Positions 13,994-36,060 of a stretch of 64,000 bases of DNA are shown in pieces. The notes below the pieces were generated by a model, which saw only the letters and a list, made by a program, of their open reading frames with translations, searched no databases and was not told the origin of the DNA. This DNA comes from Escherichia coli (GTDB lineage: Bacteria; Pseudomonadota; Gammaproteobacteria; Enterobacterales; Enterobacteriaceae): the NCBI RefSeq assembly GCF_001677475.2, contig NZ_CP015229.1; one strand, 5' to 3'. How positions within the stretch are numbered: the first letter of the stretch is position 1; each line of letters begins with the position of its first letter. Both the position numbers and the translations under genes were made by a program.

Positions 13994-14181
13994 ATTAATA
14001 ATATTCTTAAAATGTGGTAATTTATTAAATCTGTAATAAAAGCGTAAACAACTGCCGCTAGGCTTGCTGATCCCGCGCAACAAAACGCCATGCTTTGCTC
14101 GCAGATGGTTGGCAACCGACGACAGTCCTGCTAAAACGTTCGTTTGATATCATTTTTCCTAAAATTGAATGGCAGAGAATC

Positions 14182-15285
14182 ATGAGTGACAGCCAGACGC
14201 TGGTGGTAAAACTCGGCACCAGTGTGCTAACAGGCGGATCGCGCCGCCTGAACCGTGCCCATATCGTTGAACTTGTTCGCCAGTGCGCGCAGTTACATGC
14301 CGCCGGGCATCGGATTGTTATTGTGACGTCGGGCGCGATCGCCGCCGGACGTGAGCACCTGGGTTACCCGGAACTGCCAGCGACTATCGCCTCGAAACAA
14401 CTGCTGGCGGCGGTAGGGCAGAGTCGACTGATTCAACTGTGGGAACAGCTGTTTTCGATTTATGGCATTCATGTCGGGCAAATGCTGCTGACCCGTGCTG
14501 ATATGGAAGACCGTGAACGCTTCCTGAACGCCCGCGACACCCTGCGTGCGTTGCTCGATAACAATATCGTTCCGGTAATCAATGAGAACGATGCTGTCGC
14601 TACTGCGGAGATTAAGGTCGGCGATAACGATAACCTTTCTGCGCTGGCGGCGATTCTGGCGGGTGCCGATAAACTGTTGCTGCTGACCGATCAAAAAGGT
14701 TTGTATACCGCTGACCCGCGCAGCAATCCGCAGGCAGAACTGATTAAAGATGTTTACGGCATTGATGACGCACTGCGCGCGATTGCCGGTGACAGCGTTT
14801 CAGGCCTCGGAACTGGCGGCATGAGTACCAAATTGCAGGCCGCAGACGTGGCTTGCCGTGCGGGTATCGACACCATTATTGCCGCGGGCAGCAAACCGGG
14901 CGTTATTGGTGATGTGATGGAAGGCATTTCCGTCGGTACGCTGTTCCATGCCCAGGCCACTCCGCTTGAAAACCGTAAACGCTGGATTTTCGGTGCGCCG
15001 CCTGCGGGTGAAATCACGGTAGATGAAGGGGCAACCGCCGCCATTCTTGAACGCGGCAGCTCCCTGTTGCCGAAAGGCATTAAAAGCGTGACTGGCAATT
15101 TCTCGCGTGGTGAAGTCATCCGCATTTGCAACCTCGAAGGCCGCGATATCGCCCACGGTGTCAGTCGTTACAACAGCGATGCATTACGCCGTATTGCCGG
15201 ACACCACTCGCAAGAAATTGATGCAATACTGGGATATGAATACGGCCCGGTTGCCGTTCACCGTGATGACATGATTACCCGTTAA
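14182..15285 (+). CDS. proB: Glutamate 5-kinase
   Basis: 367 aa from [19 protein letters not shown]; amino-acid kinase fold plus C-terminal PUA-like region; the ORF from 14095 is a 5' extension. Confidence 0.95.
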
Positions 15286-15296
15286 GGAGCAGGCCG

Positions 15297-16550
15297 ATGC
15301 TGGAACAAATGGGCATTGCCGCGAAGCAAGCCTCGTATAAATTAGCGCAACTCTCCAGCCGCGAAAAAAATCGCGTGCTGGAAAAAATCGCCGATGAACT
15401 GGAAGCACAAAGCGAAATCATCCTCAACGCTAACGCCCAGGATGTTGCAGACGCGCGTGCCAATGGCCTTAGCGAAGCGATGCTTGACCGTCTGGCACTG
15501 ACGCCCGCACGGTTGAAAGGCATTGCCGACGATGTGCGCCAGGTGTGCAACCTCGCCGATCCGGTGGGGCAGGTGATTGATGGTGGTGTGCTGGACAGCG
15601 GTCTGCGTCTGGAGCGTCGTCGCGTACCGCTGGGGGTGATTGGCGTGATTTATGAAGCTCGCCCGAACGTGACAGTTGATGTCGCTTCGCTGTGCCTGAA
15701 AACCGGTAACGCAGTGATCCTGCGCGGTGGCAAAGAAACCTGTCGCACTAACGCTGCAACGGTGGCGGTGATTCAGGACGCCCTGAAATCCTGCGATTTA
15801 CCGGCGGGTGCCGTGCAGGCGATTGATAATCCTGACCGTGCGCTGGTCAGTGAAATGCTGCGTATGGATAAATACATCGACATGTTGATCCCGCGCGGCG
15901 GGGCTGGTTTGCATAAACTGTGCCGCGAACAGTCGACGATCCCGGTGATCACTGGTGGTATAGGCGTATGCCATATTTACGTTGATGAAAGTGCAGAGAT
16001 CGCTGAAGCCCTGAAAGTCATCGTCAACGCGAAAACCCAGCGTCCGAGCACATGTAATACGGTTGAAACGTTGCTGGTAAATAAAAACATAGCAGATAGC
16101 TTCCTGCCCGCATTAAGCAAACAAATGGCGGAAAGCGGCGTGACATTACACGCAGATGCAGCTGCGCTGGCGCAGTTGCAGACAGGCCCCGCGAAGGTGG
16201 TGGCGGTTAAAGCCGAAGAGTATGACGATGAGTTTCTGTCATTAGATTTGAACGTCAAAATCGTCAGCGATCTTGACGATGCCATCGCCCATATTCGTGA
16301 ACACGGCACGCAACACTCCGATGCGATCCTGACCCGCGATATGCGCAACGCCCAGCGTTTTGTTAACGAAGTGGATTCGTCCGCTGTTTACGTTAACGCC
16401 TCTACGCGTTTTACCGACGGCGGCCAGTTTGGACTGGGTGCGGAAGTGGCGGTAAGCACACAAAAACTCCACGCGCGTGGCCCAATGGGGCTGGAAGCGC
16501 TGACCACTTACAAGTGGATCGGCATTGGTGATTACACCATTCGTGCGTAA
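15297..16550 (+). CDS. proA: Gamma-glutamyl phosphate reductase
   Basis: 417 aa, aldehyde dehydrogenase-type fold, immediately downstream of proB. Confidence 0.95.
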
Positions 16551-16664
16551 ATAAAACCGGGTGATGCAAAACTAGCCATTTGATTCACAAGGCCATTGAC
16601 GCATCGCCCGGTTAGTTTTAACCTTGTCCACCGTGATTCACGTTCGTGAACATGTCCTTTCAGG

Positions 16665-16740
16665 GCCGATATAGCTCAGTTGGTAGAGCAGCGCATTCGT
16701 AATGCGAAGGTCGTAGGTTCGACTCCTATTATCGGCACCA
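16665..16740 (+). tRNA. thrW: tRNA-Thr (anticodon CGU)
   Basis: 76 nt GCCGATATAGCTCAGTTGGTAGAGCAGCGCATTCGTAATGCGAAGGTCGTAGGTTCGACTCCTATTATCGGCACCA; cloverleaf with CGT anticodon and encoded CCA end. Confidence 0.95.
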
Positions 16741-16754
16741 TTTAAATCAATAAG

Positions 16755-17021
16755 TTACACATCATTAGTACCTTCCTTATTTCTTGACTGGGACAAATTT
16801 GGGACCGATGGGTTCAGAATCGAGTCTATTTGCCGTGCGTGTTCGGTAAGGTGATTAGGTGCGAGGTGAGCATATCGACGAACCATTTCAAGAGTTTCCC
16901 ATCCTCCCATTTCTGTAAGTGCAAGAAGAGAAACACTGGACTGAACCAGCCTGCTTGCCTTTGCTATCAAAGTACCTTGAGGACCAGATGATTTCTGGCG
17001 ATATTTACAGCGCGTCCGCAA
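16755..17021 (-). pseudogene. Tyrosine-recombinase (phage/P4-type integrase) C-terminal remnant
   Basis: Only about 50 C-terminal residues are integrase-like ([34 protein letters not shown], with the catalytic Tyr region); no N-terminal or core domains upstream; adjacent to the tRNA attachment site. Confidence 0.65.
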
Positions 17022-17107
17022 TGAGTTTTTCTCCGTGCCGCCAGTGACGTTCCCCGCTTTTTCAGTGCGGCGATAATATCAGCGGGATGCCAGTCCTGTT
17101 GTGTCAT
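16966..17107 (-). pseudogene. Ner/Nlp(SfsB)-like HTH regulator, 5' fragment fused to the integrase remnant
   Basis: Begins [24 protein letters not shown], matching the Ner/Nlp N-terminus as recalled, then diverges and stops after about 46 codons; a Ner-like segment (LIAKA) continues in the integrase-remnant frame. Confidence 0.45.
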
Positions 17108-17574
17108 ACAACCACCTCGCTGATAAATTTTACGCCGTCGGCGGTGCGCAGCCAGCGCGGGGCTTTGAGTCCTTCCATGAAATACCAGACCAGTTCACAC
17201 AACAGCCCGGTCAGGGTTTGTTCCGTTTTTGGTTCCGCCGGGCGTTCCAGCAGAAGCTGGAGTAGTGCGAGGCAGTATTCGCACAAGGAATCTGGTTCGG
17301 AAATAAAGTGCTCTGGTGTGGCGGGAAGGGTATCAACGGTCAGGCTTTCAATCAGATGCGGCGGGATGGGGTCGTGCAGCGTGGGGTGCAATAGCGCAAG
17401 AGCCGCGTGAAGCCGTCCGCAGAGCGCTAGCCGTAGCGCGGGATCGTCGGTTTCGATCAGGGTTTCGGCGAAGCGGGCGCAGTAATCGGCAAGGACAGTA
17501 AAATCCGTGGTGGCATTGAAGGGGGCGGACAGCAGATCGAGTAAATCGCAGTCAGGGGTGAGGGTTGTAGCCAT
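17104..17574 (-). CDS. Hypothetical protein, 156 aa, acidic and Leu-rich, no recognised domain
   Basis: ORF with an AGGAGA Shine-Dalgarno about 7 nt upstream of the ATG at 17574 (longest ORF starts at 17628); stop overlaps the ATG of the Ner-like fragment (ATGA); GC-rich relative to the neighbouring RT gene. Confidence 0.5.
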   Translation of the reverse strand: MATTLTPDCDLLDLLSAPFNATTDFTVLADYCARFAETLIETDDPALRLALCGRLHAALALLHPTLHDPIPPHLIESLTVDTLPATPEHFISEPDSLCEYCLALLQLLLERPAEPKTEQTLTGLLCELVWYFMEGLKAPRWLRTADGVKFISEVVV

Positions 17575-17917
17575 AGGGCGTCTCCTGTAACGGTTTATTA
17601 TGTCCGCCACTAGAGAGGCTAATCTCATGGGGGGCGGAACCGGACGGGGTTAGCCTTACCGGCGTTACAGGAAACCGGCGCGTCTTGCGACGCCCCCGCC
17701 CGGCCCGCCATTGAGGTGTAGCCGAACGCACGACACAAAAAAGACGCTGGTGCGTCAAGTGTCGCCTGTAACGGTTTTCAGGAGGCTAATCCCGACGCCT
17801 GATTTTGCAGGCGCGGGAGAAAGATACTGCGATTGGTCATGAGTGGCAAGGGCTACATCCTGTTTACCGACATCTCACGCAAAAATACCCTGATTATTAA
17901 TAGCGAAAATCAGTTTC

Positions 17918-20900
17918 TTATTTTGGCGGTAGCTTTTTGCGGTTCTTTGCCAATTGGAATCCTTCAGGTAACGGTTTGAATTTATCGCCGCCTTTAGGCC
18001 AGCGTTTTGCCCTGCTCTGAAATGCCCTTAACGAGTCGATATCCAGTGTTGCAGCGATCACAAAGTCATTATCGCCGCCCTTCACACGAGCAATATCACG
18101 CATAAAGGGTTCTTTTGCCGGGGAACGTACGCGACTATCGCCGTATTTTCGGTTATTCACTAAAATGGTATAGGCATGAATATCCAGCGCTGCTGATTCA
18201 ATCAACGATGCAAACGTATCCAGATCTTTATTCCAGCTCAATACCATTAATGCATCGAGCGCGCCCTGAAAACGGATCCTCGCTTTACTATTCTGGAGTT
18301 CAGAGCAAATCATAACGCCAAAATTGACGCCGTGATGAATATATACCGGCTTACGTTGTTTAACATTAAGTGTCGAGTCCCAAGACTTACCATAAGTTGA
18401 AAATAATGCCTCATCTTCACCTACGGCGGGTTCCAGCTTGGGTTGCCATATTTTGACACTCGCTGGATAGCCGAGTCTGTTATCTGAAAGGACAAGTACG
18501 GCCTCACTCTTCAGTTGATTATCGCCTAAGTGGCGGTATTCTGTTCCCGCAATTAGACTGATACCCGCCGAACTCAAACGATCAGCAATACTGTTAACCC
18601 AGCGTAACGGGATTGAAAGCTCGGGGAATAAAACATAATCAGGTTTAGGAGATAGTTTCAATGTTGCATTAACCAGTTCAGAAATCCGCTGGTACCTTGA
18701 ACGGGACAAGTTAGATTTATTGCAGGCCATTTTAGCCCAGTCGTCTTCCTCTGTTTTAATGCTGGTTAGCGCAACGACAATTTTATGTTTCCTGTCAGTG
18801 CCAATATGAATGAATTTCTTAGGCCGAGCTTTTTTTGTCGCTTCATCTGAGTCCTGCTCCGATGCTAGTAACGTCGGTTTGATCCATACACCGCGTAATG
18901 CTTGAGTATATTTTGCCCAAACGGTGGACGGTCTCTCATCTGGTTTTTTGTCGGATGTAGAGGGTAATCCAACACATTCGGGGGCCAGTTCTGATATTTC
19001 AGCGGGAGTTAAAGGACGTGTAGGGAAAATGTAAGGTAGGTAACTTTCGTTCTTACGATTTCCTTTAGCCACTTTTTCCAGTCGGGTATTCTTGGTTGAT
19101 TTCAAAAATAGCTTAATAACGTCAATATCAATAAGCGATGAGTCCCTCATTAATTTCAGTATTTTAACTTCTTTTTTACGATCACGCTGATTAACAAGTT
19201 TTTCTGCCGACTGACTCTTTACGATCTGTTTATAAGGTTCCTTTGCTAAATCAGCTCGAGCTACCAATGGCGCTTTTAAATAAAAATCTGCTGAATCAAA
19301 GCGAAGATCCAGTAAATCCTTTAGATTTGTCAGACTTTGTGAAATATGATTAAAAAATGTATCCGCAAGGCACTCTTCTTTCTTTGAACGTTTATCAAGA
19401 AATAATCTGTCAGGACTGTAATATCGTGTCGCTGCATCAACAAATAGCCAGCTTAATGTGCCTTTTATACAGCGCCAAAGATCATTTACTGCTCGAGTTT
19501 TGCAACCATTTATAGTCACTTCCTTACCTGAAGTAATCACCGATGCCAACAGGTTGATGGACTCGTAAGCTTTAAGTACAATTTTTTCCGCGTGCTGCCA
19601 TTCATTCATACTGATAGCAAAGCCAAGCAGCCTTGGCAGATAACTAAAATGTGCAAATAGATTATCAGCCCTAAGAATATGGTTGTAGGCAAACTGATAA
19701 AACTCTTCCCGCTGTTCTTTCCATTCACTTGGAGACAGATCTCGTGCCAGTGTTTCAACGTAGCGTAATTGCAGTGACCAGCCCAAACGACGAATGGTTA
19801 ATCCATCCGCACGGCGCAGAGTATCGGCATTTTCACCTACACTACCGGCAGCGGAAAGGACTTTAGCTGCGGTGGAGTGTTCCAGTTGATCCGGTGAAGG
19901 CATCAAGCGGTGTTCACTAGAAAGCTCGTAGATCTCCTTTTCGATACTGTCGAGCAGATCTATTCCTGCCCTCCCTTGAAGCACGAAAAGTTTTTGCTTA
20001 TCGGATTGTAACTGGATGGTGGTCTTACCCTGGAAATGCTCGCCCTGCTGTATTTGCCATATTTGTTTTTTCTCGTTTTTCAGATAAACGCAATCATTGC
20101 CAAGCCTATCTTGCAGCAATAACATAAATTCGTGATTATTAGTAATTTTACCTGTATCGCGTATTACAAGGAACATATCATCGACATAACGACCGTAGTG
20201 AATTGGCGACAGTTTTTCAATGACTAATTTATCCCAATGGTGTAGCAATATATTGGAAATGATCCGACTGGCTGTTAATCCAATGACCAGACCACCATTA
20301 ATAACAGGTGTTTTGTACGCTATTTTTTTTCCAAATGCCGCTGCGCCGTCAGACCAGTGCTTTAAGAATACAGCTAACTGTGCAGTAAACGCTTTTTCAT
20401 GCTCAGTCAGTTTTATGTTTAGTGTGTTATAGAGATCATCAGAGGTTATAGCCAGTGGATCAATAAAATGATAGTAACTTTTTAAATCCAGTGAGGCGGC
20501 GATAATGTCACGATCTTTTTCCAACTCGTCACGTATAGCTTTTAAGCCATCACCACGCCATTTTTGGTAGGGCTGGAAATAGGGGCTAAAAGAACCCACG
20601 GCACTGATATGGAATGGATTATCCTGCTCATTGCTAAATAATTCATCATTACGAATACGTTTTAGCCGCGCGCCATAACAACAGTTGTCTAAGCTGGCAT
20701 CAAATTTATGCCCGACCATATTAATCCATAGTGCAGAGATAATGTGACTATCAACCGGGAAGTCACCAATAATACGAAACTCTGGTATCAGATCAAAATT
20801 ATTAAATAAATGGTCGGCTGCTCGTTTAGGATTAGAAAAGTGGACGTGTCCATTTTGGAATTCATGTTTTTTCTTTGTGGTTAATTTTTTCGGTAACAAA

Positions 20901-21127
20901 CGAAATTTGCCAATCAACTTCTTATTGCTACTGAATCCATCTTCGCTCTGCAAAATATCTAAGAGTTCTTGCAGGTTTTCAATTAATTCCTGCTCATACT
21001 CGGCAAATTTGATAGCAACAGGAAATGTATTCTCAAAGAAGCTATCGGCTTTGGCTTTCCGGTAAGCGACCAGAAGGTCTTCAATCGTCAGATCATCCCA
21101 GCCAGTGAAAGTTGCCTGATATGTCAT
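17918..21127 (-). CDS. Reverse transcriptase fused to a C-terminal nitrilase (CN-hydrolase) domain; UG/Abi-type defence-associated RT (DRT type 1 / UG1-like architecture)
   Basis: 1069 aa. RT motifs: motif A ASLDLKSYYHFID, motif B GLVIGLTASRIISNILL, motif C YGRYVDDMFLV (about aa 310-320). C-terminal ~280 aa carry a nitrilase-like Glu/Cys pattern (VLFPELSIP ... GVMICSELQ). AT-rich gene in an island next to a tRNA. Confidence 0.85.
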   Translation of the reverse strand: MTYQATFTGWDDLTIEDLLVAYRKAKADSFFENTFPVAIKFAEYEQELIENLQELLDILQSEDGFSSNKKLIGKFRLLPKKLTTKKKHEFQNGHVHFSNPKRAADHLFNNFDLIPEFRIIGDFPVDSHIISALWINMVGHKFDASLDNCCYGARLKRIRNDELFSNEQDNPFHISAVGSFSPYFQPYQKWRGDGLKAIRDELEKDRDIIAASLDLKSYYHFIDPLAITSDDLYNTLNIKLTEHEKAFTAQLAVFLKHWSDGAAAFGKKIAYKTPVINGGLVIGLTASRIISNILLHHWDKLVIEKLSPIHYGRYVDDMFLVIRDTGKITNNHEFMLLLQDRLGNDCVYLKNEKKQIWQIQQGEHFQGKTTIQLQSDKQKLFVLQGRAGIDLLDSIEKEIYELSSEHRLMPSPDQLEHSTAAKVLSAAGSVGENADTLRRADGLTIRRLGWSLQLRYVETLARDLSPSEWKEQREEFYQFAYNHILRADNLFAHFSYLPRLLGFAISMNEWQHAEKIVLKAYESINLLASVITSGKEVTINGCKTRAVNDLWRCIKGTLSWLFVDAATRYYSPDRLFLDKRSKKEECLADTFFNHISQSLTNLKDLLDLRFDSADFYLKAPLVARADLAKEPYKQIVKSQSAEKLVNQRDRKKEVKILKLMRDSSLIDIDVIKLFLKSTKNTRLEKVAKGNRKNESYLPYIFPTRPLTPAEISELAPECVGLPSTSDKKPDERPSTVWAKYTQALRGVWIKPTLLASEQDSDEATKKARPKKFIHIGTDRKHKIVVALTSIKTEEDDWAKMACNKSNLSRSRYQRISELVNATLKLSPKPDYVLFPELSIPLRWVNSIADRLSSAGISLIAGTEYRHLGDNQLKSEAVLVLSDNRLGYPASVKIWQPKLEPAVGEDEALFSTYGKSWDSTLNVKQRKPVYIHHGVNFGVMICSELQNSKARIRFQGALDALMVLSWNKDLDTFASLIESAALDIHAYTILVNNRKYGDSRVRSPAKEPFMRDIARVKGGDNDFVIAATLDIDSLRAFQSRAKRWPKGGDKFKPLPEGFQLAKNRKKLPPK

Positions 21128-21422
21128 GCGTTATCGTCCTTAGATTAAAGTCTGTACAGAATTAGCCAGCCGTTTCATGCCCGAAGGAGGTGCTCTTGAC
21201 ACCAGTAATCCATCAGTGAGGCTGGCAATAATTTTGATTTGTATCCATGTTACACGCTCCCCGCAACCAGTCCGAGCATATATTTGTCACATTTTTCCCG
21301 AAAGTGATTAAGTTTGAATTTTTTGTTTAATGTCGATTTTTAGTCGACAAAATGAGGAATAAGTAAATTATTTCTTGCTGTGGCGTATCCCTGAACCTAC
21401 ACTGGTTTAAATATTTGTACTA

Positions 21423-22226
21423 ATGTCTATTCAGGGGCGACATTTGCCAAATTATCTAAACTGGCTGATGCAGAATACGCTACCCGGTCAGGTGCTGCTC
21501 CAGTCATGGCTTACCCGCAACGGCGTAGATCGTAAGCTCTCTTACCTCTATGTCCAGAATGGCTGGCTCAGGCGGATCGCTCACGGCGTATACTGCCGGA
21601 CGGGTCGTGAACCGGACTGGGTGGACGCGGTTTACTGCCTGCAAACACAGTGGGAAAAGCCAGTACGGGTGGCGGGGCTAACCAGCCTTGCGCTTCAGGG
21701 CCATGCGCACTATACCGAACCGGGTAAGCCGCAAATCTGGCTCGCGCTTCCGGCTTACGTCAAACTGCCGGGATGGTTTGCTGCCTTCGAACAATCTGCA
21801 ACATTTATCACGCTGTATACATCGGGCCTTACCGTTGATGTCACGTCATTTACTACGGAACTGAAAATTGGCGACCGGCAGTTAGCAGGCAGTGCCCCGG
21901 AACTGGCCGCGTATGAGATCGCCTGCGGCGTTCCTTCGTTGATATCGTTCGAACATGCCGATGCTCTGTTTCAGGGGATGAATCTTCTCAGCCCGCGTAA
22001 ATTGCAGGCGTTACTCTGCGCCAGTCATTCGGTTAAAACCAACCGGGTGATGCTTTACCTTGCCCGGCGTAATGGACACCCTTATTTTCAGTATATTGAT
22101 CAAAGCGGTATAGAAACAGGTACGGGAAAGCGGCAAATCATACCCGGCGGCTGGCTGGAGCCGGATTATCAAATTACTGTTCCACGCGAATTTAAACCGG
22201 AAGGAGTCGAAGATGGATCTGCGTGA
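21423..22226 (+). CDS. AbiEi-family antitoxin / transcriptional regulator (type IV TA, abortive infection)
   Basis: 267 aa; N-terminal winged-helix pattern (LTRNGVDRKLSYLYVQNGWLRRIAHGVYCRTG) typical of AbiEi; overlaps the downstream nucleotidyltransferase gene by 14 nt. Confidence 0.65.
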   Translation: MSIQGRHLPNYLNWLMQNTLPGQVLLQSWLTRNGVDRKLSYLYVQNGWLRRIAHGVYCRTGREPDWVDAVYCLQTQWEKPVRVAGLTSLALQGHAHYTEPGKPQIWLALPAYVKLPGWFAAFEQSATFITLYTSGLTVDVTSFTTELKIGDRQLAGSAPELAAYEIACGVPSLISFEHADALFQGMNLLSPRKLQALLCASHSVKTNRVMLYLARRNGHPYFQYIDQSGIETGTGKRQIIPGGWLEPDYQITVPREFKPEGVEDGSA

Positions 22227-23133
22227 TAGCTATACCCGGCAGGTCAAACTGTTGATGGCCGCTCTGCCGCATGTGGCGAAGGAGTCCTGTTTCGCGTTGA
22301 AAGGCGGCACGGCAATCAATTTGTTTGTGCAGGATTTTCCCCGTCTGTCGGTGGATATCGATCTGGCGTATAAGACTTTTGCGGATCGCGATACCGATTT
22401 GACGGCGATCAACGACGCTTTGAAGAGAATTACTGCATCGCTGAACAGTAAACCGGGGATTACCGCGATTCGGCAGGAAAATAAAACGGATGAAAAGCGC
22501 ATCATTGTGAATACGGCTGATGCCCAGATTAAGATCGAGGTTAGTCCGGTCTGGCGTGGGCTGTTGTTGCCTCCGGCAGAAATGTCGGTGTGCGAACGTG
22601 TGGAAATGGAGTATGGCTTCACCACTATGAGTGTCGTTTCGCTGGCGGATCTTTATGGCGGTAAAATCTGCGCAGCGCTTGATCGTCAGCACCCGCGCGA
22701 TCTGTTTGATGTGCTGAATATGCTGGAGAAACCGGGACTGATGCGGGAGATCTTTGACGGTTTTCTTTGTTATCTGGCAGGCCATCCCCGCCCCATTGCC
22801 GAGTTGCTGGCCCCAAACTGGGATACAGAGCGGATCACGACGCTGTATGCCCAGGAATTTTCGGGGATGACTCAGCAGGAAACGTCGCTGGAATCGCTGC
22901 TGTCAGTAACGACTTTGCTGCCGCAGGCGTTGAAGTCACATCTTACGGATCTGGATCGCGAGTTCTTGCTCAGTTTTAAGCAAAACAGCCCTGACTGGTC
23001 GCGGTATCGCTATCCTGAAATTCAGCATCTTCCGGCTATTCGCTGGAAGCAACGCAATCTGGCGGTGCTTAAAGATAAAAATCCGGCGAAGTATGTGGCG
23101 GCGGTGAATAAGCTAGAGAGGGTGCTGGAGTAA
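22213..23133 (+). CDS. AbiEii/AbiGii-family nucleotidyltransferase toxin (DUF1814)
   Basis: 306 aa; N-terminal LKGGTAINLF and DIDLAY motifs of the AbiEii nucleotidyltransferase fold; translationally coupled to the upstream AbiEi-like gene. Confidence 0.75.
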   Translation: MDLRDSYTRQVKLLMAALPHVAKESCFALKGGTAINLFVQDFPRLSVDIDLAYKTFADRDTDLTAINDALKRITASLNSKPGITAIRQENKTDEKRIIVNTADAQIKIEVSPVWRGLLLPPAEMSVCERVEMEYGFTTMSVVSLADLYGGKICAALDRQHPRDLFDVLNMLEKPGLMREIFDGFLCYLAGHPRPIAELLAPNWDTERITTLYAQEFSGMTQQETSLESLLSVTTLLPQALKSHLTDLDREFLLSFKQNSPDWSRYRYPEIQHLPAIRWKQRNLAVLKDKNPAKYVAAVNKLERVLE

Positions 23134-23538
23134 TATTCTTAGCGCTGTTCAGGGACTCTGAATTGGGCCATGATGCTTTGGTTATATGAATAACTTCGTG
23201 GCCATAACTCAAACATATTCATTTAATTCAATACATAGCACCATCGAGTAAGAGATCGCTGAGTCATTAGACGATCTCTGCTCGTGGAAATACGAAACTA
23301 TCTCTTTCCAAAGCTGATCTGAATAACATTATCTGGAGCATCATTATTAGACCTGATGATCTCATGCTCAATAAAATCCCCCCATTTCAAAAAAAGATCC
23401 CGTAATTTTTCCGCCTGCTGCCCGACCTGATAAGTTCTGATTAATCTGTCTTTCGGAACATGATTCAACAGAAGTTCTATAAGCCGTTCTGGCGCATCCA
23501 GATACTCAGCACAGCCTGTAGAGTGCAGGTGCAGACAT

Positions 23539-24438
23539 TTAAGCCAATTGCTGCCGCCATTCCTTGACGTGGTCAATCAGGGCGCGGAGCTTTGGTGCAA
23601 TATTGCGACGCTGTGGGAAATACAGATAGAAGCCCGGAAATTGTGGAAGAAAGTCATCAAGCAGCGATACAAGCTTACCGCTTTCAATATATGGCCTGAA
23701 CGTTTCCTGAGTGGCAATTGTTATTCCTCCGCCGGCAAGAGCCAGCCTCAACATCAGACGCAGATCATTCGTCGTAATCTGCGGTTCAATCGCAAGGTCG
23801 AAAGCTCTACCGTTTTCTTCAAATGGCCAGCGATAAGGAGCAACCTCCGGGGACTGACGCCAGCCGATACACTTATGATTCACAAGTTCACGCGGGTGAA
23901 CAGGTGTGCTGTTGGCTGCGAGATAGGAGGGAGAGGCAACGACCATTTCACGCTGCCTGGCGGTAAGGGGAACAGCAATCATGTCTTTTTCAATGACCTC
24001 TCCGAGCCTTACGCCAGCATCGTAACCTGCGGCAACGATATCGAATTCCTCATCCGTGACAACAATATCAAGCGTAACGGCTGGATTGGCAGCTGCAAAC
24101 GAAGCGATTAGCGGACCTGAAAGAAATTCTTCTGCTATCGACGTCACCGCGATTCTGAGATGTCCACGTGGTACATGGTCAGAAACCATCTCTTCGAACG
24201 CTGCCTCAATACCGGATAAAGGTAATGACAACGATTTATGCAGCCGTTCTCCCGCTTCCGTCAAATTAACTGAGCGCGTGGTCCGCATTACAAGCATTGT
24301 CCCGAATGCATCTTCAAGGCGTCTTATTCCCTGACTGACCGCTGAACGGGTAACGCCCAGTCGTGCGGCGGCTTTACTGAAATTACTCTCTTCTGCTACC
24401 GCGATAAAAATGGGTAAAAGATTAAGATCGATTTTCAT
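23539..24438 (-). CDS. LysR-family transcriptional regulator
   Basis: 299 aa; N-terminal HTH (FSKAAARLGVTRSAVSQGIRRLE) and LysR substrate-binding domain; divergent from an SDR gene. Confidence 0.85.
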   Translation of the reverse strand: MKIDLNLLPIFIAVAEESNFSKAAARLGVTRSAVSQGIRRLEDAFGTMLVMRTTRSVNLTEAGERLHKSLSLPLSGIEAAFEEMVSDHVPRGHLRIAVTSIAEEFLSGPLIASFAAANPAVTLDIVVTDEEFDIVAAGYDAGVRLGEVIEKDMIAVPLTARQREMVVASPSYLAANSTPVHPRELVNHKCIGWRQSPEVAPYRWPFEENGRAFDLAIEPQITTNDLRLMLRLALAGGGITIATQETFRPYIESGKLVSLLDDFLPQFPGFYLYFPQRRNIAPKLRALIDHVKEWRQQLA

Positions 24439-24536
24439 TGTTTAATGCCGCTAACCACTGAGTACATTGAAAGCAGGATACTGGAACCAATCATAAAGTT
24501 CTATTATCTCTCCGAACACATTTGAAGGAGAACGTA

Positions 24537-25259
24537 ATGGATAAGGTCATATTAATCACCGGCGCATCAAGTGGTATTGGGGAAGGTATTGCCAGAGAAC
24601 TGGGAACGACAGGTGCGAAGGTTTTACTGGGCGCACGCAGAGTTGAGCGTATCGAAGCCATTGCAACCGAAATCTGCCTCGCAGGAGGAATTGCTAAAGC
24701 GCGGGAGTTGGATGTCACAGACCGACAGTCCATGGCCGATTTCGTGCAAGCAGCGCTGGATAACTGGGGGCGAGTTGATGTTCTTATCAATAATGCGGGC
24801 GTTATGCCGCTTTCACCGCTTGCAGCAGGAAAACAGGATGAATGGGAGCTCACTATTGACGTGAATATCAAAGGTGTACTGTGGGGAATTGGCGCTGTAC
24901 TTCCGGTGATGGAAGCACAGGGTTCCGGTCAGATAATCAATCTTGGTTCTATTGGTGCCCTTTCTGTTGTGCCCACAGGCGCAGTCTATTGTGCATCAAA
25001 ATTTGCAGTACGGGCTATTTCTGATGGCTTACGGCAGGAAAGCTCGAAAATCCGTGTGACCTGCGTAAATCCTGGCGTTGTCGAAAGTGAACTGGCTTCA
25101 ACCATTACCCATGTGGAAACCATGAAGGCAATGGACGCCTACCGTTCTGTTGCACTTCAACCCGCGGATATTGCCCGTGCTGTAAGGCATATTATTGAAT
25201 CTCCCGAAAGCGTTGATACAACCGAAATTACCATCAGACCCACTGCATCTGCAAACTGA
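24537..25259 (+). CDS. Short-chain dehydrogenase/reductase (SDR) family oxidoreductase
   Basis: TGASSGIG Rossmann motif and the S...YxxxK catalytic pattern (YCASK); start taken at MDKVILITG. Confidence 0.85.
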   Translation: MDKVILITGASSGIGEGIARELGTTGAKVLLGARRVERIEAIATEICLAGGIAKARELDVTDRQSMADFVQAALDNWGRVDVLINNAGVMPLSPLAAGKQDEWELTIDVNIKGVLWGIGAVLPVMEAQGSGQIINLGSIGALSVVPTGAVYCASKFAVRAISDGLRQESSKIRVTCVNPGVVESELASTITHVETMKAMDAYRSVALQPADIARAVRHIIESPESVDTTEITIRPTASAN

Positions 25260-25470
25260 AGAATAACTTTTACATTCACGTTTTATTAAATATGTCAGAA
25301 GGAAAATTTATATCCACCTGTTTTGCATAGCAAGATGCATTATGTATTGCTCACCCCGAAGGAGATGAAGTTTTAATTACAGAAGGAGTATTTTCTCTTG
25401 GAGTAAATATGGCTCATGTTTAATGCCTATGTATATAAAACTCATCCTCTCAATTGTCAGGAGAATTAAC

Positions 25471-25701
25471 ATGAATACTATCTGTTCTTTAATTGTTGTG
25501 GTTACACTGTCTTTATTATCATTCAGTAGCGTCGCCAAAACGATTACTGCCGTCGGTTCAACCATCGACAGCACTGAAAAAGAAATTTCTTTACAGGCAG
25601 AAAAACAAGGAAAATCATATAAAATTCTGGGCGCATTTTTCAAGAACAGAGTTTATATTATAGCAAAGTTAACACCAGTCAGTAAAAATGATGCTTCATA
25701 A
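25471..25701 (+). CDS. Small secreted DUF1471 (YdgH/BhsA/McbA-like) protein
   Basis: About 76 aa with a signal peptide (MNTICSLIVVVTLSLLSFSSVA) and a mature part resembling the BhsA/YhcN family; boundaries uncertain. Confidence 0.5.
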   Translation: MNTICSLIVVVTLSLLSFSSVAKTITAVGSTIDSTEKEISLQAEKQGKSYKILGAFFKNRVYIIAKLTPVSKNDAS

Positions 25702-25752
25702 GGCTCATGATATAATTTTTAAGACATGATCAAGAAGCACGTTTATTTATTC

Positions 25753-25880
25753 ATATACTCTAAATAATTCAAGTTGCAGGAAGGCGACAAGTGAGTGAAT
25801 CCCCAGGAGCTTACAAAAGTAAGTGACTGGGGTGAATGAACGCAGTCGCAGCACATGCAACTTGAAGTATGACGAGTATA
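25753..25880. repeat. ERIC/IRU element, copy 2
   Basis: Over 90% identical by eye to the copy at 6873-7008 (GTGAATCCCCAGGAGCTTAC ... AAGTAAGTGACTGGGGTGAATG). Confidence 0.85.
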
Positions 25881-26031
25881 ATTATCATTATTATGGCCAT
25901 GGAATACCTGACAAATGACGCTACCCCAACCTTCTGTACCAGTCGTTCTGCTAATTCTACCGATGCTTCGGTCTGGAGTGGTAGAGTAATATTAGACACA
26001 GTTTTATTTTCTCTCTTTTTCGAGGGCTGTA

Positions 26032-26297
26032 TATGAACAGGAAGAATACATCCCTAAGCGGTTAATGCTGGCGTAATCAATAGACCAGCATTAATCACAG
26101 ATGATTATCAATCAGACAGAAATGGTTAAATCGTCGAATTCATAATTAATACTTTTTGTAACGCCGCTGAATAGCTTGAAAAGGATGTATATTTTAAATA
26201 TCAGTGAAGTGAACAGTTTATTGCCGTTATTAATAGAAATGGAGGAATAAATACGCGTATTCTACTATTGCAACAAAAACAACGATATTGATCATTT
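26032..26297. repeat. Intergenic repeat module, intact copy (two halves contiguous)
   Basis: First half matches 44674-44784 and second half matches 45478-45622 (for example TATTTTAAATATCAGTGAAGTGAACAGTTTATTGCCGTTATTAATAGAAATGGAG); contains an internal inverted repeat TTAATGCTGG...CCAGCATTAA. Confidence 0.7.
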
Positions 26298-26527
26298 TTC
26301 ATAATGAAGTAACCTGACAGATATAAAAATGTTGATTGAGGCTAAATGCCCGGATGAAGGTTGTCGAGGGAGCCAGGTTGTTTTTTCTTTTGGATGATCT
26401 CCATTGCTGGATAGTCCCCTTGTACAGATAAGTCTGCTCTTTCTCGCTCAAAGCAGACCCTGGAATTGAACGCAGAGTGACTACCTGACACAATATTGCA
26501 CCGTGAAGAGTCGGTCGTTGTTAACGT

Positions 26528-27412
26528 TCAGATTTTCAATGTATCAATGACCATCCGCAGAGCGGGGGAGACGTTGCGATGAGGGTAATAGAGAAACAAT
26601 CCCTCCATTCGCAGGCTGTAACGCTGCAACACTCTGATAAGCTTACCGTGTTCTAAATCATCCGCGACCAGTTCAACAGGAACATAGGCCAATCCGAGGC
26701 CCAGCCGGGCTGCTTCTGCTTCCATATAGCTGTCGGATAAGGCCCATTGCCCTTCAGGGCGATGAGTGATTTTTTTATCATCCTGATTGAGTTCCCACTG
26801 GTATACGCTGCCGTCGGCAAACTGATAGGCGATACAGGGATGCGCCTTTAAATCCGCCGGGGTTTGCGGAAAACCATAGCGACGAAAATGTTCCGGAGTC
26901 CCCACAATTGCCATCTCCATATCGGGCGTGATGCGTACCGCGACCATGCCCTGACCGACTTCAGGCCCCAGGCGGACACCTGCATCGAATCTTTCCTCGA
27001 TGATATCGACGAACCGGCTCTCATTTATCAGTTCAAGCCGGATATCAGGATATCGCTGTTTAAATACCGCCAGCTTTGGCAGCAGGCATTTATCAATCGC
27101 GTGCTGGCTGGCATTGATACGCACCGTGCCGGAGGGCGTCTCTCGATAGTGCGCCAGCGTGGCAAGCCCAAGATCTAACATTTCAAATCCAGATGCCGTC
27201 TTCTGGTAGAGCTGCTCGCCTGCTTGTGTCAGCGACAGTTTACGCGTGGTGCGCACTAGCAGCTGGACGCCCAGCCTTTCTTCAAGCTCGCGAACAGAAC
27301 GGCTGACTCCTGACTGAGCAAGACCCAGCCGCTGAGCTGCTGCGGTAAAGCTGCCTTCCCGCACCACCTGCATAAACAGGTACAGCTCGTTGTAGTTCTC
27401 CCTTTTCGCCAT
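26528..27412 (-). CDS. LysR-family transcriptional regulator (position of K-12 yagP)
   Basis: 294 aa, HTH (FTAAAQRLGLAQSGVSRSVRELE); divergent from a hydrolase/MFS gene pair. Confidence 0.85.
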   Translation of the reverse strand: MAKRENYNELYLFMQVVREGSFTAAAQRLGLAQSGVSRSVRELEERLGVQLLVRTTRKLSLTQAGEQLYQKTASGFEMLDLGLATLAHYRETPSGTVRINASQHAIDKCLLPKLAVFKQRYPDIRLELINESRFVDIIEERFDAGVRLGPEVGQGMVAVRITPDMEMAIVGTPEHFRRYGFPQTPADLKAHPCIAYQFADGSVYQWELNQDDKKITHRPEGQWALSDSYMEAEAARLGLGLAYVPVELVADDLEHGKLIRVLQRYSLRMEGLFLYYPHRNVSPALRMVIDTLKI

Positions 27413-27598
27413 TGAAACATCCCCCCTTCATGCCGGCAATCTCCGCATTAATTTATAACAATATGGTATTAATCTTAGCATTAATCGCCCCCTAATCAGC
27501 ACTAATTCTGCTCATTATAATGACCCCATCAAAGCAAAGCACCGCAGCGTTGTCCGTCGGAAACCTGTATCTCTCTGTTGTTTTTTATGGGGATTTTT

Positions 27599-28735
27599 AT
27601 GAAAGCCTTCACCCGAACGCTAAAAACCGCGATGCCGACCATGTTGCTTTTCGCATCATTAAGTGGAGTCACGACAATGAGTTATGCTGATTCAACCAAT
27701 CCTAATGCCCCTGTGTCCATGACAGATAAATGGGATAAAACGTTCGCCGAGAGCCAGAAAGTCGATCACCGTAAAGTCTCGTTCCCGAACCGATATGGCA
27801 TCACCTTAGTGGGCGATCTTTACCTGCCTAAAGACCGTGGCGATCGCAAACTGGCGGCGATTGCGGTCAGTGGGCCATTTGGCGCGGTGAAAGAGCAATC
27901 CAGCGGCTTGTATGCGCAGACGCTGGCGGAACGAGGGTTTGTTACCCTGGCGTTCGATCCTTCTTACACCGGGGAAAGCGGCGGCTATCCGCGAAACGTC
28001 GCCTCACCGGATATCAACACTGAAGATTTCAGCGCGGCGGTGGATTTCTTAGGGCTGCAAAAAGAGGTAGATCGCAACCGTATCGGGCTGCTCGGTATTT
28101 GTGGCTGGGGCGGCATGGCGCTGAACGACGCGGCGATGGATACCCGCGTTAAAGCGGTAGCTACCAGCGTGATGTATGACATGAGCCGGGCGATGGGTCA
28201 TGGTGTGGGGGATGGCAAAGACCGTTATTCTATCGCCGACCGTCGTGCTGTTCTGCAATATCTGAATGAACAGCGCCGGAAGGATGCGCAGAGCGGAACG
28301 TTCGCTCACGGTGGTCATGATATTAATGTCGATAGCAACGGCAAGGTCAGTGCTGGCGAGCGCATTCTGCCAGAAACGCTGCCGGCAAATCCTCATCCGG
28401 TACTGAAAGAGTTCTTTGACTACTATCGCATGCCGCGCGGCTTCCACGAACGTTCCGTTAACTCTACCGGGGCGTGGACGGCAACGATGCCGCTGTCATT
28501 TATGAATATGCCGCTGTTGAGCTACGCCAGTGAAATCACCATTCCGACGCTGATTGTGACCGGTGAGAAAGCACATTCACGTTATTTTGCTGAAGATGCT
28601 TACAAGGCGGTTGGCAGTAAAGACAAAGAGCTGGTGGTGGTACCAGGGGCAAATCACGTGGACCTGTACGATAACGTGGCCGGAAAAATACCTTTCGCGA
28701 AGTTCGAACAATTTTTCCAGACCAAACTGAAATAA
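27599..28735 (+). CDS. Secreted alpha/beta-fold hydrolase
   Basis: Signal peptide, then an alpha/beta hydrolase-like core (GICGWGG nucleophile-elbow-like motif); start taken at MKAFTRTLK. Confidence 0.7.
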   Translation: MKAFTRTLKTAMPTMLLFASLSGVTTMSYADSTNPNAPVSMTDKWDKTFAESQKVDHRKVSFPNRYGITLVGDLYLPKDRGDRKLAAIAVSGPFGAVKEQSSGLYAQTLAERGFVTLAFDPSYTGESGGYPRNVASPDINTEDFSAAVDFLGLQKEVDRNRIGLLGICGWGGMALNDAAMDTRVKAVATSVMYDMSRAMGHGVGDGKDRYSIADRRAVLQYLNEQRRKDAQSGTFAHGGHDINVDSNGKVSAGERILPETLPANPHPVLKEFFDYYRMPRGFHERSVNSTGAWTATMPLSFMNMPLLSYASEITIPTLIVTGEKAHSRYFAEDAYKAVGSKDKELVVVPGANHVDLYDNVAGKIPFAKFEQFFQTKLK

Positions 28736-28810
28736 AACCTCTCCTGAATTGATGCAAAGCCACCGGTCTATGGCAGGTGGCTTTTATCCTGATCTTTGTG
28801 AAATTTCACT

Positions 28811-30004
28811 ATGTCGACACTAAGCCAAACACTATCACCTCATCATCAGCGCGCATACTGGGGCGGTATTTTTGCCATGACCCTGTGCGTGTTTGTGCTG
28901 ATTGCTTCTGAATTTATGCCCGTCAGCCTGCTCACGCCGATTACCCGCGATTTAGGCGTGACGGAGGGGCTTGCAGGGCAGGGGATTGCTATCTCCGGCG
29001 CGCTGGCGGTTCTGACCAGCCTGACGCTTTCAACGCTAGCTGGAAAGATGAATCGTAAGTTCCTGCTGCTGGGGATGACGGTTCTGATGGCCGTATCGGG
29101 GCTTATTATTGCGCTGGCTTCCAGTTATCTGATGTATATGGTCGGTCGTGCGATGATTGGGGTGGCCATTGGCGGTTTTTGGTCGATGTCAGCGGCAACG
29201 GCGATTCGTCTGGTGCCGCAGCATCAGGTTACGCGTGCGCTGGCGATTTTCAACGCCGGTAATGCGCTGGCGACGGTCGTGGCCGCGCCGCTGGGAAGCT
29301 ATCTGGGGGCCACGGTCGGATGGCGAGGCGCTTTCTTGTGCCTGGTGCCTATCGCGGTTGTCGCCTTTATCTGGCAGTACATCAGCCTGCCCAGTATGGA
29401 TGCGAATAAAAGCCACACGTCAGCTGGCGATGTATTCCGCATACTTAGCCGCCGCGTGATTGCGGTTGGCATGCTGGCCTGCGGCCTGTTTTTCATGGGG
29501 CAGTTTGCACTATTCACCTATGTGCGCCCGTTTCTGGAGTCGGTGACACGGGTTAATTCCTTAGGCTTGTCGTTGATTTTGCTGATTATCGGCGTGGCCG
29601 GTTTTATTGGCACGCTGGTTGTTTCGGCATTTCTCAACAGAAAATTCTACCCCACGCTGATGGCCATACCCGGACTGATGGCCGTCATTGCTATCGGTCT
29701 GATGCTTACCGGGCATCACGTCTGGACGGTCTCGCTGCTGTTAGGACTCTGGGGCATGCTGGCCACCGCCGCGCCAACCGGATGGTGGACATGGATTGCG
29801 CGTACGTTGCCTGACAACGCCGAAGCCGGAGGCGGCCTCATGGTCGCGGTGATTCAGCTCGCCATCGCCCTTGGATCAACGGCAGGAGGCATCGTGTTTG
29901 ACCGCCTTGGCTGGCAGAGTACGTTTGCCATGAGTAGCGTGCTGCTCCTTTGCGCGGGCGTACTGACCTTTGTTACCGCACGCCAGAAGGCCGGTGCGTT
30001 TTAG
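28811..30004 (+). CDS. MFS-family transporter
   Basis: 397 aa, about 12 predicted transmembrane helices, MFS-like loop motifs. Confidence 0.8.
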   Translation: MSTLSQTLSPHHQRAYWGGIFAMTLCVFVLIASEFMPVSLLTPITRDLGVTEGLAGQGIAISGALAVLTSLTLSTLAGKMNRKFLLLGMTVLMAVSGLIIALASSYLMYMVGRAMIGVAIGGFWSMSAATAIRLVPQHQVTRALAIFNAGNALATVVAAPLGSYLGATVGWRGAFLCLVPIAVVAFIWQYISLPSMDANKSHTSAGDVFRILSRRVIAVGMLACGLFFMGQFALFTYVRPFLESVTRVNSLGLSLILLIIGVAGFIGTLVVSAFLNRKFYPTLMAIPGLMAVIAIGLMLTGHHVWTVSLLLGLWGMLATAAPTGWWTWIARTLPDNAEAGGGLMVAVIQLAIALGSTAGGIVFDRLGWQSTFAMSSVLLLCAGVLTFVTARQKAGAF

Positions 30005-30183
30005 TCCGGCGAGGGGGCGCGTTGCTGAATAAGTTACACACGGCGATGAGCGCCCACTATGGGTTGGGCGCTCTTTTAAACGATTTAGGTGATTTTCTAA
30101 AACGGCTACTGCAAATTTTTCTCTTAATTTATGGGTATTTCCCCCGGAGGCGAGAAAGCGCTCTCCACGCCCGGCCGCAAGGA

Positions 30184-31140
30184 TCAGGACGACGGGGGCA
30201 GGCATGAATCCTCCTCCAGATGGAGACGTACAGAGGCAACTTCTGCCAGCACAGAGAGGGCCAGTGTATGCGCATCCCGGGCTTTGGGGAATATCCCGAT
30301 GGGTGCCCGGATTTGCGCTGTCTCCTCCCTGGACCATCCCAGCTCGTGGAGCTTTTGCAGACGTAAAGTGTGGGTTCGATAGCTGCCCAATGCGCCGAGA
30401 TAAAAGGGTTTTGCCTCTCGCGCGGCCTGCAACACTGGCAGCTCCCGGTTGAGATCATGGCACAGCAAAATGACCGCCGTATCGGTATCGATCTGAGCGC
30501 TGGCTGAGGCCGGAAAAAGATCGAAGATATGGTTGTCATAGCCTGTGGCTGCTGCAAGACTCGCGGTTGCCTGCGCCTCAAGAGAACCTCCGTAAATCAA
30601 CAGCCTGACGCATGGCCTGAACCCTACCTCAAAGCCATTGAGATTCCAGCCCGTTCGGGTTTGCGTGGGCAGGCACACCAGCGATTGTGCTTGCGGATCA
30701 TAGCGCAGCCCCGCCGGTTTTCTCTGTTCCAGGCGGTTCAGCACGGCGAGCAGAGGCTGTGCCGTGCGTAGTTTATGGAGCGTCAGCGTGATCCCACCGC
30801 CGCAGGGCAGAACGATGTCAAACCACGGCGAACCTTCGCCATAGCGAATTTCGCGATCGCAGCCTGAGCCCATCATCTCCAGCGCTTCAAAAGCGGCAGC
30901 GGCCTCCACGCAGCCGCCAGAGACAAAACCGCAGTAACGACCATCTTCGCGCACCACCATCTGCGCCCCGAGCGGGCGCGCCGCGCCGCCGCGTATCTCC
31001 ACCAGCGTCACCAGCACCGCTCCTTTACCGGACATTAGCGCCTCTACGGCGAAGCGCAGAATGGTCCGGTGGTCATCGGTGAGAAACGCCTGCTCTGGCT
31101 TATGCCAGTGTTCGTCTTTGTCAAAAAGCGGGTATGACAT
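30184..31140 (-). CDS. paoD: Molybdenum cofactor insertion chaperone, XdhC family
   Basis: 318 aa; last gene of the paoABCD operon; XdhC/CoxI-like. Confidence 0.85.
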   Translation of the reverse strand: MSYPLFDKDEHWHKPEQAFLTDDHRTILRFAVEALMSGKGAVLVTLVEIRGGAARPLGAQMVVREDGRYCGFVSGGCVEAAAAFEALEMMGSGCDREIRYGEGSPWFDIVLPCGGGITLTLHKLRTAQPLLAVLNRLEQRKPAGLRYDPQAQSLVCLPTQTRTGWNLNGFEVGFRPCVRLLIYGGSLEAQATASLAAATGYDNHIFDLFPASASAQIDTDTAVILLCHDLNRELPVLQAAREAKPFYLGALGSYRTHTLRLQKLHELGWSREETAQIRAPIGIFPKARDAHTLALSVLAEVASVRLHLEEDSCLPPSS

Positions 31141-31149
31141 TGTTCCTCC

Positions 31150-34987: not shown

Positions 34988-35404
34988 ACCAGGCCTCCGG
35001 TATTCTAATGGGGAAAATAAGAGTGCGTTGCGAGAGTGCTGATGCTTTTTTAAACGTTAAGCATAGTCGGCGACAGCAGGAGGATTATTCTTAAAACGCG
35101 AATGCAGCTATGAGCCCGGCTAATAAATTCATGTTCGCCGGGATGTTGATGATGATGGGAGCTGGTTTATTGCTTTAGTTGTACGATGCAAAAACCGATA
35201 AGGAAACCTGTGATTGTCAGCTCTGCATCACCCTGCAAATCTTTGTCACTTCTAATATAAAAATATGGAGAAATGATGGTGCTTATATTCATTGGCGATT
35301 AGGAAACCATCTTGTTATACAAAACAATACAGTTCTTTACATTTGCTTTGTTTTATGAATACTCCTAAAGAGGTGTATAACATAATGGTACAAGCAGGGT
35401 AGAT

Positions 35405-36019: not shown

Positions 36020-36033
36020 TGTAATGAATGATA

Positions 36034-36060
36034 AAAATGGCGCAAATACAGCGCCATTTT
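36034..36060 (+). terminator. Hairpin terminator downstream of yagU
   Basis: AAATGGCGCAAATACAGCGCCATTT stem-loop followed by a T-run. Confidence 0.65.

Follow-up and report, generated by a model that had tools for sequence, protein, structure and literature searches.

The threonine tRNA gene thrW of Escherichia coli (yagP-proA, tRNA_Thr_CGT) is defence hotspot #33 in the catalogue of Hochhauser et al. (2023, PMC10121019), which shows 'integrase-only mobile elements' there and counts defence systems in 275 of 555 occupied instances. The ST131 lineage (EC958 and relatives, among them Ecol_743) carries the island GI-thrW at this site, and in EC958 that island encodes the M.EcoMIII/EcoMIII restriction-modification (R-M) system (PMC4659465). 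Here we describe the thrW locus in a 64,000-nucleotide stretch of E. coli DNA (RefSeq assembly GCF_001677475.2, contig NZ_CP015229.1), referred to below as the window. Positions 16741-23521 very probably form an integrative island, now degenerate, that adjoins the thrW 3′ end and is of the same family as GI-thrW of ST131, with a reverse transcriptase (RT)-nitrilase gene and an AbiEi/AbiEii pair as its cargo.

Reverse transcriptases of the UG5-large group, which are UG/Abi class 3 defence RTs defined by Mestre et al. (PMC9226505), protect against phage (PMC9122126; PMC9226505; bioRxiv 10.64898/2025.12.16.694600). A transmembrane partner accompanies 31 of 299 UG5-large members (PMC9226505) and is essential in the system from E. 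coli E101 studied by Rousset et al. in 2022 (PMC9226505; PMC9122126). The partner-less DRT11 is sufficient in S. meliloti, where it gives an abortive-infection-like phenotype, and is the sole partner-less version shown to work (2025 preprint, bioRxiv 10.64898/2025.12.16.694600). Set beside these precedents the window island is ordinary: its type, its site and both of its defence systems have already been described, and its novelty is low. It shares locus and element class with hotspot #33; the catalogue of Hochhauser et al., as far as its accessible text goes, records occupancy and does not describe the decay state seen here or the backbone of C4 RNA, orphan gene and HTH_35 regulator.

An island confined between thrW and a LysR gene

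ARAGORN identified one tRNA gene in the window, tRNA-Thr(CGT) at 16665-16740 on the plus strand (Rfam tRNA, 71.8 bits), which is thrW. The genes proB (14095-15285) and proA (15297-16550) lie upstream, and the island starts at 16741, one base past the thrW 3′ end; thrW is both the integration target and the left boundary. A change of sequence character directly after thrW, pointed out in an initial annotation of this DNA, is borne out by the GC profile, which runs at 0.37-0.46 over the RT gene versus 0.52-0.58 in proBA.

That annotation extended the island to 26500, counted a LysR regulator, an SDR-family oxidoreductase, a copy of the enterobacterial repetitive intergenic consensus (ERIC) and an AT-rich stretch reaching 26.5 kb as cargo, and left the right boundary undefined. 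Its gene list was accurate, in that the orphan, the RT-nitrilase, AbiEi/AbiEii, the LysR/SDR pair and ERIC are all present, and its interpretation was partly supported: it named the correct kind of element but drew it too long. With its last base at 23521, the island measures 6,781 bp. Its right boundary, an unstranded deletion junction between 23521 and 23522, was located by a three-way comparison of the window, ST131 and K-12, by homology to K-12 and by empty sites. In blastn comparison with K-12 the window is homologous up to 16750, again at 23522-23877 (yagP, 98% identity) and again from 30129 (paoD). A conserved spacer of ~116 bp is all that separates the most distal thrW repeat from the LysR 3′ end in both K-12 and O157:H7. 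A predicted empty site of 937 bp, in which this spacer joins the end of proA plus thrW to the end of LysR, was searched against 5,426 complete E. coli genomes, the set to which all genome counts below refer. It found an uninterrupted match in 948 of them (17.5%), with 100% coverage and 98-99% identity. Since thrW, spacer and LysR are contiguous in these 948 genomes, the LysR/SDR pair, ERIC and everything rightward belong to the chromosomal flank and are not cargo; at an empty site nothing but the spacer parts thrW from LysR.

The distal end of the island is formed by int2 (23299-23521, minus strand), the last 74 codons of a P4-type (arm-domain) integrase, with 92% identity to residues 366-439 of the 439-residue integrase of ST131 GI-thrW. 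The initial annotation had overlooked this remnant, together with a C4/isrK/a1b1 module at 17627-17827. Annotations of TUM13936 and Z1323CEC0003 mark the homologous stretch as a pseudogene of a site-specific integrase. In the ST131 strain Ecol_743 (NZ_CP015069.1) int2 is full length (1,320 bp, 439 aa, one internal stop) and has behind it attR, which repeats 45 nt of the thrW 3′ end. The window tracks the int2 sequence to ...CCTGTAG (23521); the next bases, AGTGCAG, are the final 7 bp of the ancestral spacer between thrW and LysR. While GI-thrW thus keeps its integrase at full length and its attR, the window lacks 83% of the integrase, attR and the spacer. From the visible attR of ST131, the element would have arrived through site-specific recombination at the terminal ~45 nt of thrW; in the window lineage a single later deletion would then have taken the 5′ 1.1 kb of int2, attR and all but 7 bp of the 116-bp spacer. 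The same junction of truncated int2 and LysR occurs in 16 genomes, E. coli C included.

Loss of attR in this deletion accounts for the missing direct repeat. The initial annotation had seen no repeat of the tRNA 3′ end by eye, and a computational search of the entire 64-kb window for a second copy of the 25-nt tRNA 3′ end, allowing up to 3 mismatches, likewise returned none. A stretch at 23219-23245, where 13 of 16 bases match by eye, was rejected as an att site; it is homologous to the region between AbiEii and int2 in ST131.

The island is at least 80% present in 258 genomes (4.8%), strain 042 among them. Its position against a tRNA 3′ end, its sporadic distribution and the empty sites in related genomes are those of a tRNA island carrying defence cargo, here at the site that CP4-6 occupies in K-12, as the initial annotation had proposed. 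A direct repeat of the tRNA 3′ end and a complete integrase are both missing, and re-examination recovered two C-terminal stubs (about 65 aa and 74 aa) and no intact integrase. Because both integrases are dead and attR is absent, the island can no longer excise. The earlier proposal of immobilisation therefore holds as far as the lack of an intact integrase goes, but the integrase next to thrW is not the sole loss, the distal P4-type integrase having been truncated along with attR.

Arms shared with GI-thrW and a variable slot

The left arm opens with int1 (16755 to ~16950, minus strand), a C-terminal stub of ~60-65 codons from a lambdoid Sf/P22-type tyrosine integrase that matches PHROG integrase families (E=5.9e-10 and 8.3e-22) and retains the catalytic Tyr region ...RRYAHL.... 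The phages SfII, SfI, SfIV and phi458 integrate at thrW, and their int genes are 95% identical to 16741-16918. In TUM13936, 042 and W46 the homologous stretch is an integrase pseudogene according to the NCBI annotation pipeline PGAP. As the initial annotation had recognised, the stub is joined to a frameshifted Ner-like fragment. This is an HTH_35 regulator pseudogene (16951-17107, minus strand), which matches PHROG transcriptional repressors and was delineated by tblastn with the intact 80-aa HTH_35 protein of L042, an E. coli island at the tRNA gene beside mtfA. Residues 1-19 of that protein align to 17107-17039, whereas a different frame, interrupted by a stop, encodes the counterpart of residues 38-70 at 17049-16951. 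The pseudogene has thus suffered a frameshift and an in-frame stop, and its central helix-turn-helix is gone.

Its partner gene in related islands follows, encoding a 156-aa orphan protein (17104-17574, minus strand, the reading frame being open back to 17628). This protein had no match in Pfam, PHROG, PADLOC or NCBIfam, and its homologues fall into 616 clusters across Enterobacterales, every one unnamed. An AlphaFold2 model gave a helical bundle of moderate confidence (pLDDT 74), for which Foldseek searches of PDB and BFVD returned generic helical bundles only (E>0.009) and no informative fold match.

An RNA module completes the arm, with all of its parts on the minus strand. A C4-type antisense RNA gene at 17627-17715 matches Rfam RF01695 over its full length (model positions 1-87; 73.7 bits versus a gathering threshold of 45), and an isrK-like RNA at 17737-17814 matches RF01394 (68 bits versus 50). 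Overlapping the latter, the a1/b1 target element of C4 at 17775-17827 scores just below threshold (RF03163, 43.8 bits versus 46.7). A promoter-like site lies nearby at 17849-17821; in a promoter/terminator scan such sites were no commoner here than by chance. We considered whether C4/isrK might be a non-coding RNA associated with the RT and rejected this, as the module occurs without an RT in ST131 and L042 and is missing from all six other RT-nitrilase loci tested. In other genomes PGAP annotates an 'ash family protein' reading frame corresponding to window 17619-17783 (minus strand), on top of the C4 gene. It is broken by stops in the window and is probably not a real protein gene.

The order in L042 is defence genes, a1b1/isrK, C4, orphan, intact HTH_35, EFASI RNA, an Integrase_1-family gene, a P4-type integrase and the tRNA. 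The left arm of the window is this layout in eroded form. The EFASI RNA motif (Rfam RF02957, ~100 bits) stands between the HTH_35 and integrase genes at 10389-10517 of L042 and of a second locus, L043, and at 14821-14948 of a Serratia marcescens locus, L011; it is missing from the eroded arm of the window.

GI-thrW shares with the window both the insertion site and two blocks of sequence, 16001-17850 and 21220-23521, at ~93% identity, and is unrelated between them. The first block holds the left arm, with the Sf-phage-type int1 stub, the broken HTH_35, the 156-aa orphan and the C4/isrK module, and the second the right arm, with AbiEi/AbiEii and the P4-type integrase. What lies between is a variable cargo slot (17851-21219, unstranded; limits from blastn of the window against Ecol_743), filled in the window by a 3.4-kb RT-nitrilase segment and in ST131 by 6.1 kb of hsdS-hsdM-hsdR, a type I R-M system. 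Beside thrW, ST131 has another allele of the int1 stub, the first ~70 bp of which equal the 'ancestral' spacer of K-12 and O157; the thrW-LysR spacer itself looks like an ancient integrase remnant. At 41015-41265 of the Ecol_743 locus, after the attR of GI-thrW, there is a second Sf-type integrase stub of the same allele as the one directly after thrW in the window.

Strain 042 and about 257 other RefSeq genomes share the order thrW, int1 stub, orphan, C4, RT-nitrilase and AbiEi/Eii with the window, strain 042 at 100% coverage and 96.8% identity. Compared with the window, more has been deleted from 042-type copies: the gap runs from the AbiEii stop to window position 26066 and takes out the int2 stub, LysR and SDR. 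They also carry a different allele of the C4-isrK arm (88% identity). Identity varies by segment. Between the window and each E. coli carrier examined it is 98.3-98.5% in the RT slot; in the C4-isrK arm it is 88% to RT carriers versus 98% to ST131, and AbiEi ranges from 93.8 to 96.6% among the compared loci. The laboratory strain E. coli C has a truncated hsdR upstream of AbiE in place of the RT, with the same int2/LysR junction as the window. In that strain (locus L041, NZ_CP020543.1, 8594-12623) the hsd-type version of the island lies behind CP4-6-like genes, and its truncated hsdR lies next to an IS3 element. The mosaic of segment identities, together with the configuration in E. coli C, suggests that arms and cargo have been exchanged by homologous recombination through the arms and not by integrase-mediated transfer. 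By this route cargo and arm alleles would still move between lineages.

The CP4-6 prophage of K-12 uses the same thrW att site and likewise has a P4-type integrase at its distal end on the minus strand. However, it is 34 kb long with unrelated cargo, its IntF is only 22% identical to int2, and blastn of the window against K-12 262898-297205 found homology limited to thrW/att.

Predicted defence genes of the slot and the right arm

The slot holds a single intact gene (17918-21127, minus strand) for a 1069-aa UG5-large reverse transcriptase with a fused C-terminal nitrilase domain. A Pfam scan of the protein gave nothing significant and a PADLOC profile was needed for its recognition; the profile RT_UG5-nitrilase (PDLC03780) matches residues 1-1068 with E=0 and 1031.7 bits. 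The Drt1a profile of PADLOC matches weakly. Because of this contrast with the full-length UG5-nitrilase match, the protein is assigned to UG5-large and not to DRT1. Aligned with 17 homologues of 49-81% identity, it shares 332 invariant columns. Invariant in all 18 sequences are HYGRYVDDMF of the RT (YVDD at residue 314) and the nitrilase Glu (FPELS), Lys (QPK) and Cys (ICSE).

From its family membership, the RT-nitrilase is predicted to be a single-gene anti-phage defence system of the abortive-infection type, and defence would need both the RT and the nitrilase activities. Its full-length match to the UG5-nitrilase profile and its conserved YVDD motif and nitrilase Glu/Lys/Cys place it with the E101 RT-nitrilase and S. 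meliloti DRT11. Unlike the E101 system, with its single-transmembrane-segment partner, the window gene has no transmembrane partner, in which it resembles DRT11; no reading frame fits into the 67 bp between the RT stop and the conserved arm. It also differs from both in its setting, a thrW island and not a P4 psu-int hotspot or a megaplasmid.

When one genome was scanned for each species, 29 loci with RT-nitrilase relatives (49-95% identity) emerged, among them Serratia, E. albertii, Acinetobacter, Pseudomonas, Shewanella and many marine Gammaproteobacteria, with several of the loci near other tRNA genes. AbiE and the orphan accompany the RT only in the Serratia marcescens locus, the other 28 being without AbiE and in surroundings unrelated to the window island. 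There the order is AbiEii, AbiEi, RT, isrK, C4, orphan and then hsdR-PrrC-hsdS-hsdM. This type I R-M operon (L011, JADMXW010000008.1, 6810-13879) embeds a homologue of the PrrC anticodon nuclease (E=1.8e-151) and, standing beside the RT-isrK-C4-orphan block, makes for a larger defence island.

The right arm contributes the AbiE genes, both on the plus strand. AbiEi, an antitoxin and transcriptional regulator (21423-22226; PADLOC E=7.6e-79), bears the same name in the PGAP annotation of homologous loci. AbiEii (22213-23133; PADLOC E=7.8e-117) is a nucleotidyltransferase toxin whose translation shows the motif GGTAINL...DIDL. The two genes are bicistronic, their reading frames overlap by 14 bp, and both profiles are matched, as required of an AbiE system. 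The pair is accordingly a candidate for a second, independent system of abortive-infection type, a prediction drawn from the family. AbiE was reportedly described by Dy and colleagues in 2014 as a type IV toxin-antitoxin system, the toxin of which is a GTP-binding nucleotidyltransferase. By analogy, AbiEii would act as a GTP-dependent nucleotidyltransferase toxin restrained by AbiEi.

Origin of the element, its flank and the recurring backbone

The island as first delimited, a single element of ~9.8 kb spanning 16741-26500 with LysR/SDR, ERIC and the AT-rich repeats, and with loss of the integrase beside thrW as the sole cause of its immobility, is very improbable. In its favour, the LysR/SDR block is at least 80% present in just 387 genomes and 25.25-26.5 kb is AT-rich (GC 0.33-0.40); against it, LysR adjoins thrW in the empty-site genomes, K-12 keeps a 356-bp remnant of it (yagP, 98% identity), O157:H7 has the same block behind a different element, an unrelated P4-like satellite, and the int2 remnant sits between AbiE and LysR. 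Deletions account for the patchiness of the block, K-12 being without 23878-30128, strains 042, W46 and VCSW5 without 23135-26066, and ST131 without everything up to yagU. That the island genes are instead ancestral Escherichia core at thrW, lost elsewhere, is scarcely conceivable. The RT slot does diverge from E. coli copies by 1.5-1.7%, similar to or below the 2.3-2.7% of proBA, and the E. albertii RT is 93-95% identical; against this, only the 258 genomes given above carry the genes, and not the majority of Escherichia that the initial annotation had named as fatal to its reading. A clean empty site with intact spacer exists in 17.5%, the block is bracketed by att repeats in ST131, the RT gene has a GC content of 0.37-0.46, and integrase remnants stand at both ends.

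The composition of the degenerate island invites two further readings. Two unrelated remnants of thrW-specific integrases at opposite ends could reflect a fusion of two tandem thrW elements with the att between them lost, one Sf-type (int1, HTH_35, orphan, C4 and possibly RT) and one P4-type (AbiE, int2). Tandem arrays at thrW are present in O157:H7, a second int1 stub follows attR in ST131, and in L042 the C4-orphan-HTH_35 module is on the integrase/tRNA side. We nevertheless regard such a fusion as rather unlikely, as in ST131 the whole block including the int1 stub lies within one pair of thrW repeats, the Serratia locus holds AbiE, RT, isrK, C4 and orphan together, and the att search of the window, at up to 3 mismatches, revealed no internal att remnant. 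Descent from a P4-like phage satellite, so heavily reduced that little was kept besides an integrase, the CI/C4 region of immunity RNA and a psu-int defence hotspot with RT-nitrilase and AbiE, is unlikely. It would fit the P4-type arm domain of int2, its location at the same end and in the same orientation as intF of CP4-6, the identical order of isrK and C4 in the P4-like satellite at thrW of O157:H7, and the known occurrence of RT-nitrilase systems as cargo of the P4 psu-int hotspot (PMC9122126). However, no psu, sid, delta, alpA or alpha-primase was found among the open reading frames and annotations of the window, nor a P2/P4 cos site within 3 mismatches, and the orphan has no homologue in the O157 P4-like element. 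Moreover, the isrK-C4-orphan-HTH_35 backbone is also found in other integrase-only islands without satellite genes, and C4/isrK-like regions match lambdoid phage immunity regions too (SfV, ~71%). Since psu, sid, delta, alpha, cos and an orphan homologue in the O157 satellite are all wanting, we do not class the island as a P4-like satellite, with which it shares only a P4-type integrase stub and a C4-type RNA.

Several points weigh against the reading of a degenerate, defensive GI-thrW-family island that reshuffles through its arms. A single element and a two-element tandem fusion are both possible, as are int1 and int2 as the cognate integrase. Recombination through the arms is deduced from identity patterns and not from phylogeny, and only two cargo types (RT and hsd) occupy the slot in a small, hand-picked sample. 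Finally, the UG5-large system validated in E. coli required a transmembrane partner, and there is none in the island.

To the right of the degenerate island, the flank begins with the LysR gene (23539-24438, minus strand), followed by the SDR oxidoreductase gene (24522-25259, plus strand). K-12 yagP was at one point equated with a second LysR gene (26528-27412), but blastn places yagP at the first. The K-12 deletion, of 6.25 kb, fuses the 3′ third of LysR (yagP) to paoD, and K-12 has thereby lost the SDR, the second LysR, an alpha/beta hydrolase and a major facilitator superfamily (MFS) transporter, all intact in the window. Within the AT-rich stretch, a small reading frame with a signal-peptide-like N-terminus (25423-25701, plus strand) weakly matches a BhsA/YdgH-type family without reaching its cut-off (E=1.9e-4) and is conserved in O157:H7, TUM13936 and others, where it is called 'hypothetical protein'. 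The ERIC copy (25754-25879, 126 bp), with its core sequence visible, is an insertion relative to TUM13936 and resembles the yafP-rtcB ERIC copy of W46 and VCSW5; the comparison indicates that it is polymorphic between strains. Farther right are a ykgR fragment, the second LysR, the alpha/beta hydrolase, the MFS transporter and paoD. In the pao-ecp core (30100-38000) identity between the window and complete RefSeq E. coli genomes does not exceed 98.1%, and proBA (14095-16550) is only 96.5-98% identical to the compared E. coli loci. The DNA probably comes from an Escherichia lineage, perhaps a cryptic clade, that does not belong to the phylogroups usually sequenced.

For annotation, these results give the RT-nitrilase the label UG5-large in place of DRT1, show a C4 RNA gene beneath the 'ash family protein' call of PGAP and return the LysR/SDR genes to the chromosomal flank. 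Beyond such bookkeeping and the correction of the island boundary to single-base resolution, their significance is small. The locus illustrates in detail the decay of a defence island at a tRNA hotspot, with loss of both integrases and attR, while its slot and arms would keep reshuffling by homologous recombination. Potential for discovery lies only in the C4-orphan-HTH_35 backbone, which is conserved among integrase-only islands. In the order cargo slot, a1b1/isrK, C4, orphan, HTH_35, (EFASI), integrase and tRNA, it recurs at E. coli thrW, at the E. coli tRNA gene by mtfA and in Serratia marcescens. We raise the speculative and, in our estimate, quite unlikely idea that it represents a family, so far undescribed, of minimal elements that depend on a helper (satellites or 'hitchers'), with a P1/P4-style antisense-RNA immunity switch and a dedicated defence slot. 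If this were true, the helper-dependent backbone would supply the mechanism of mobilisation and regulation that Hochhauser et al. did not explain for 'integrase-only' defence islands.

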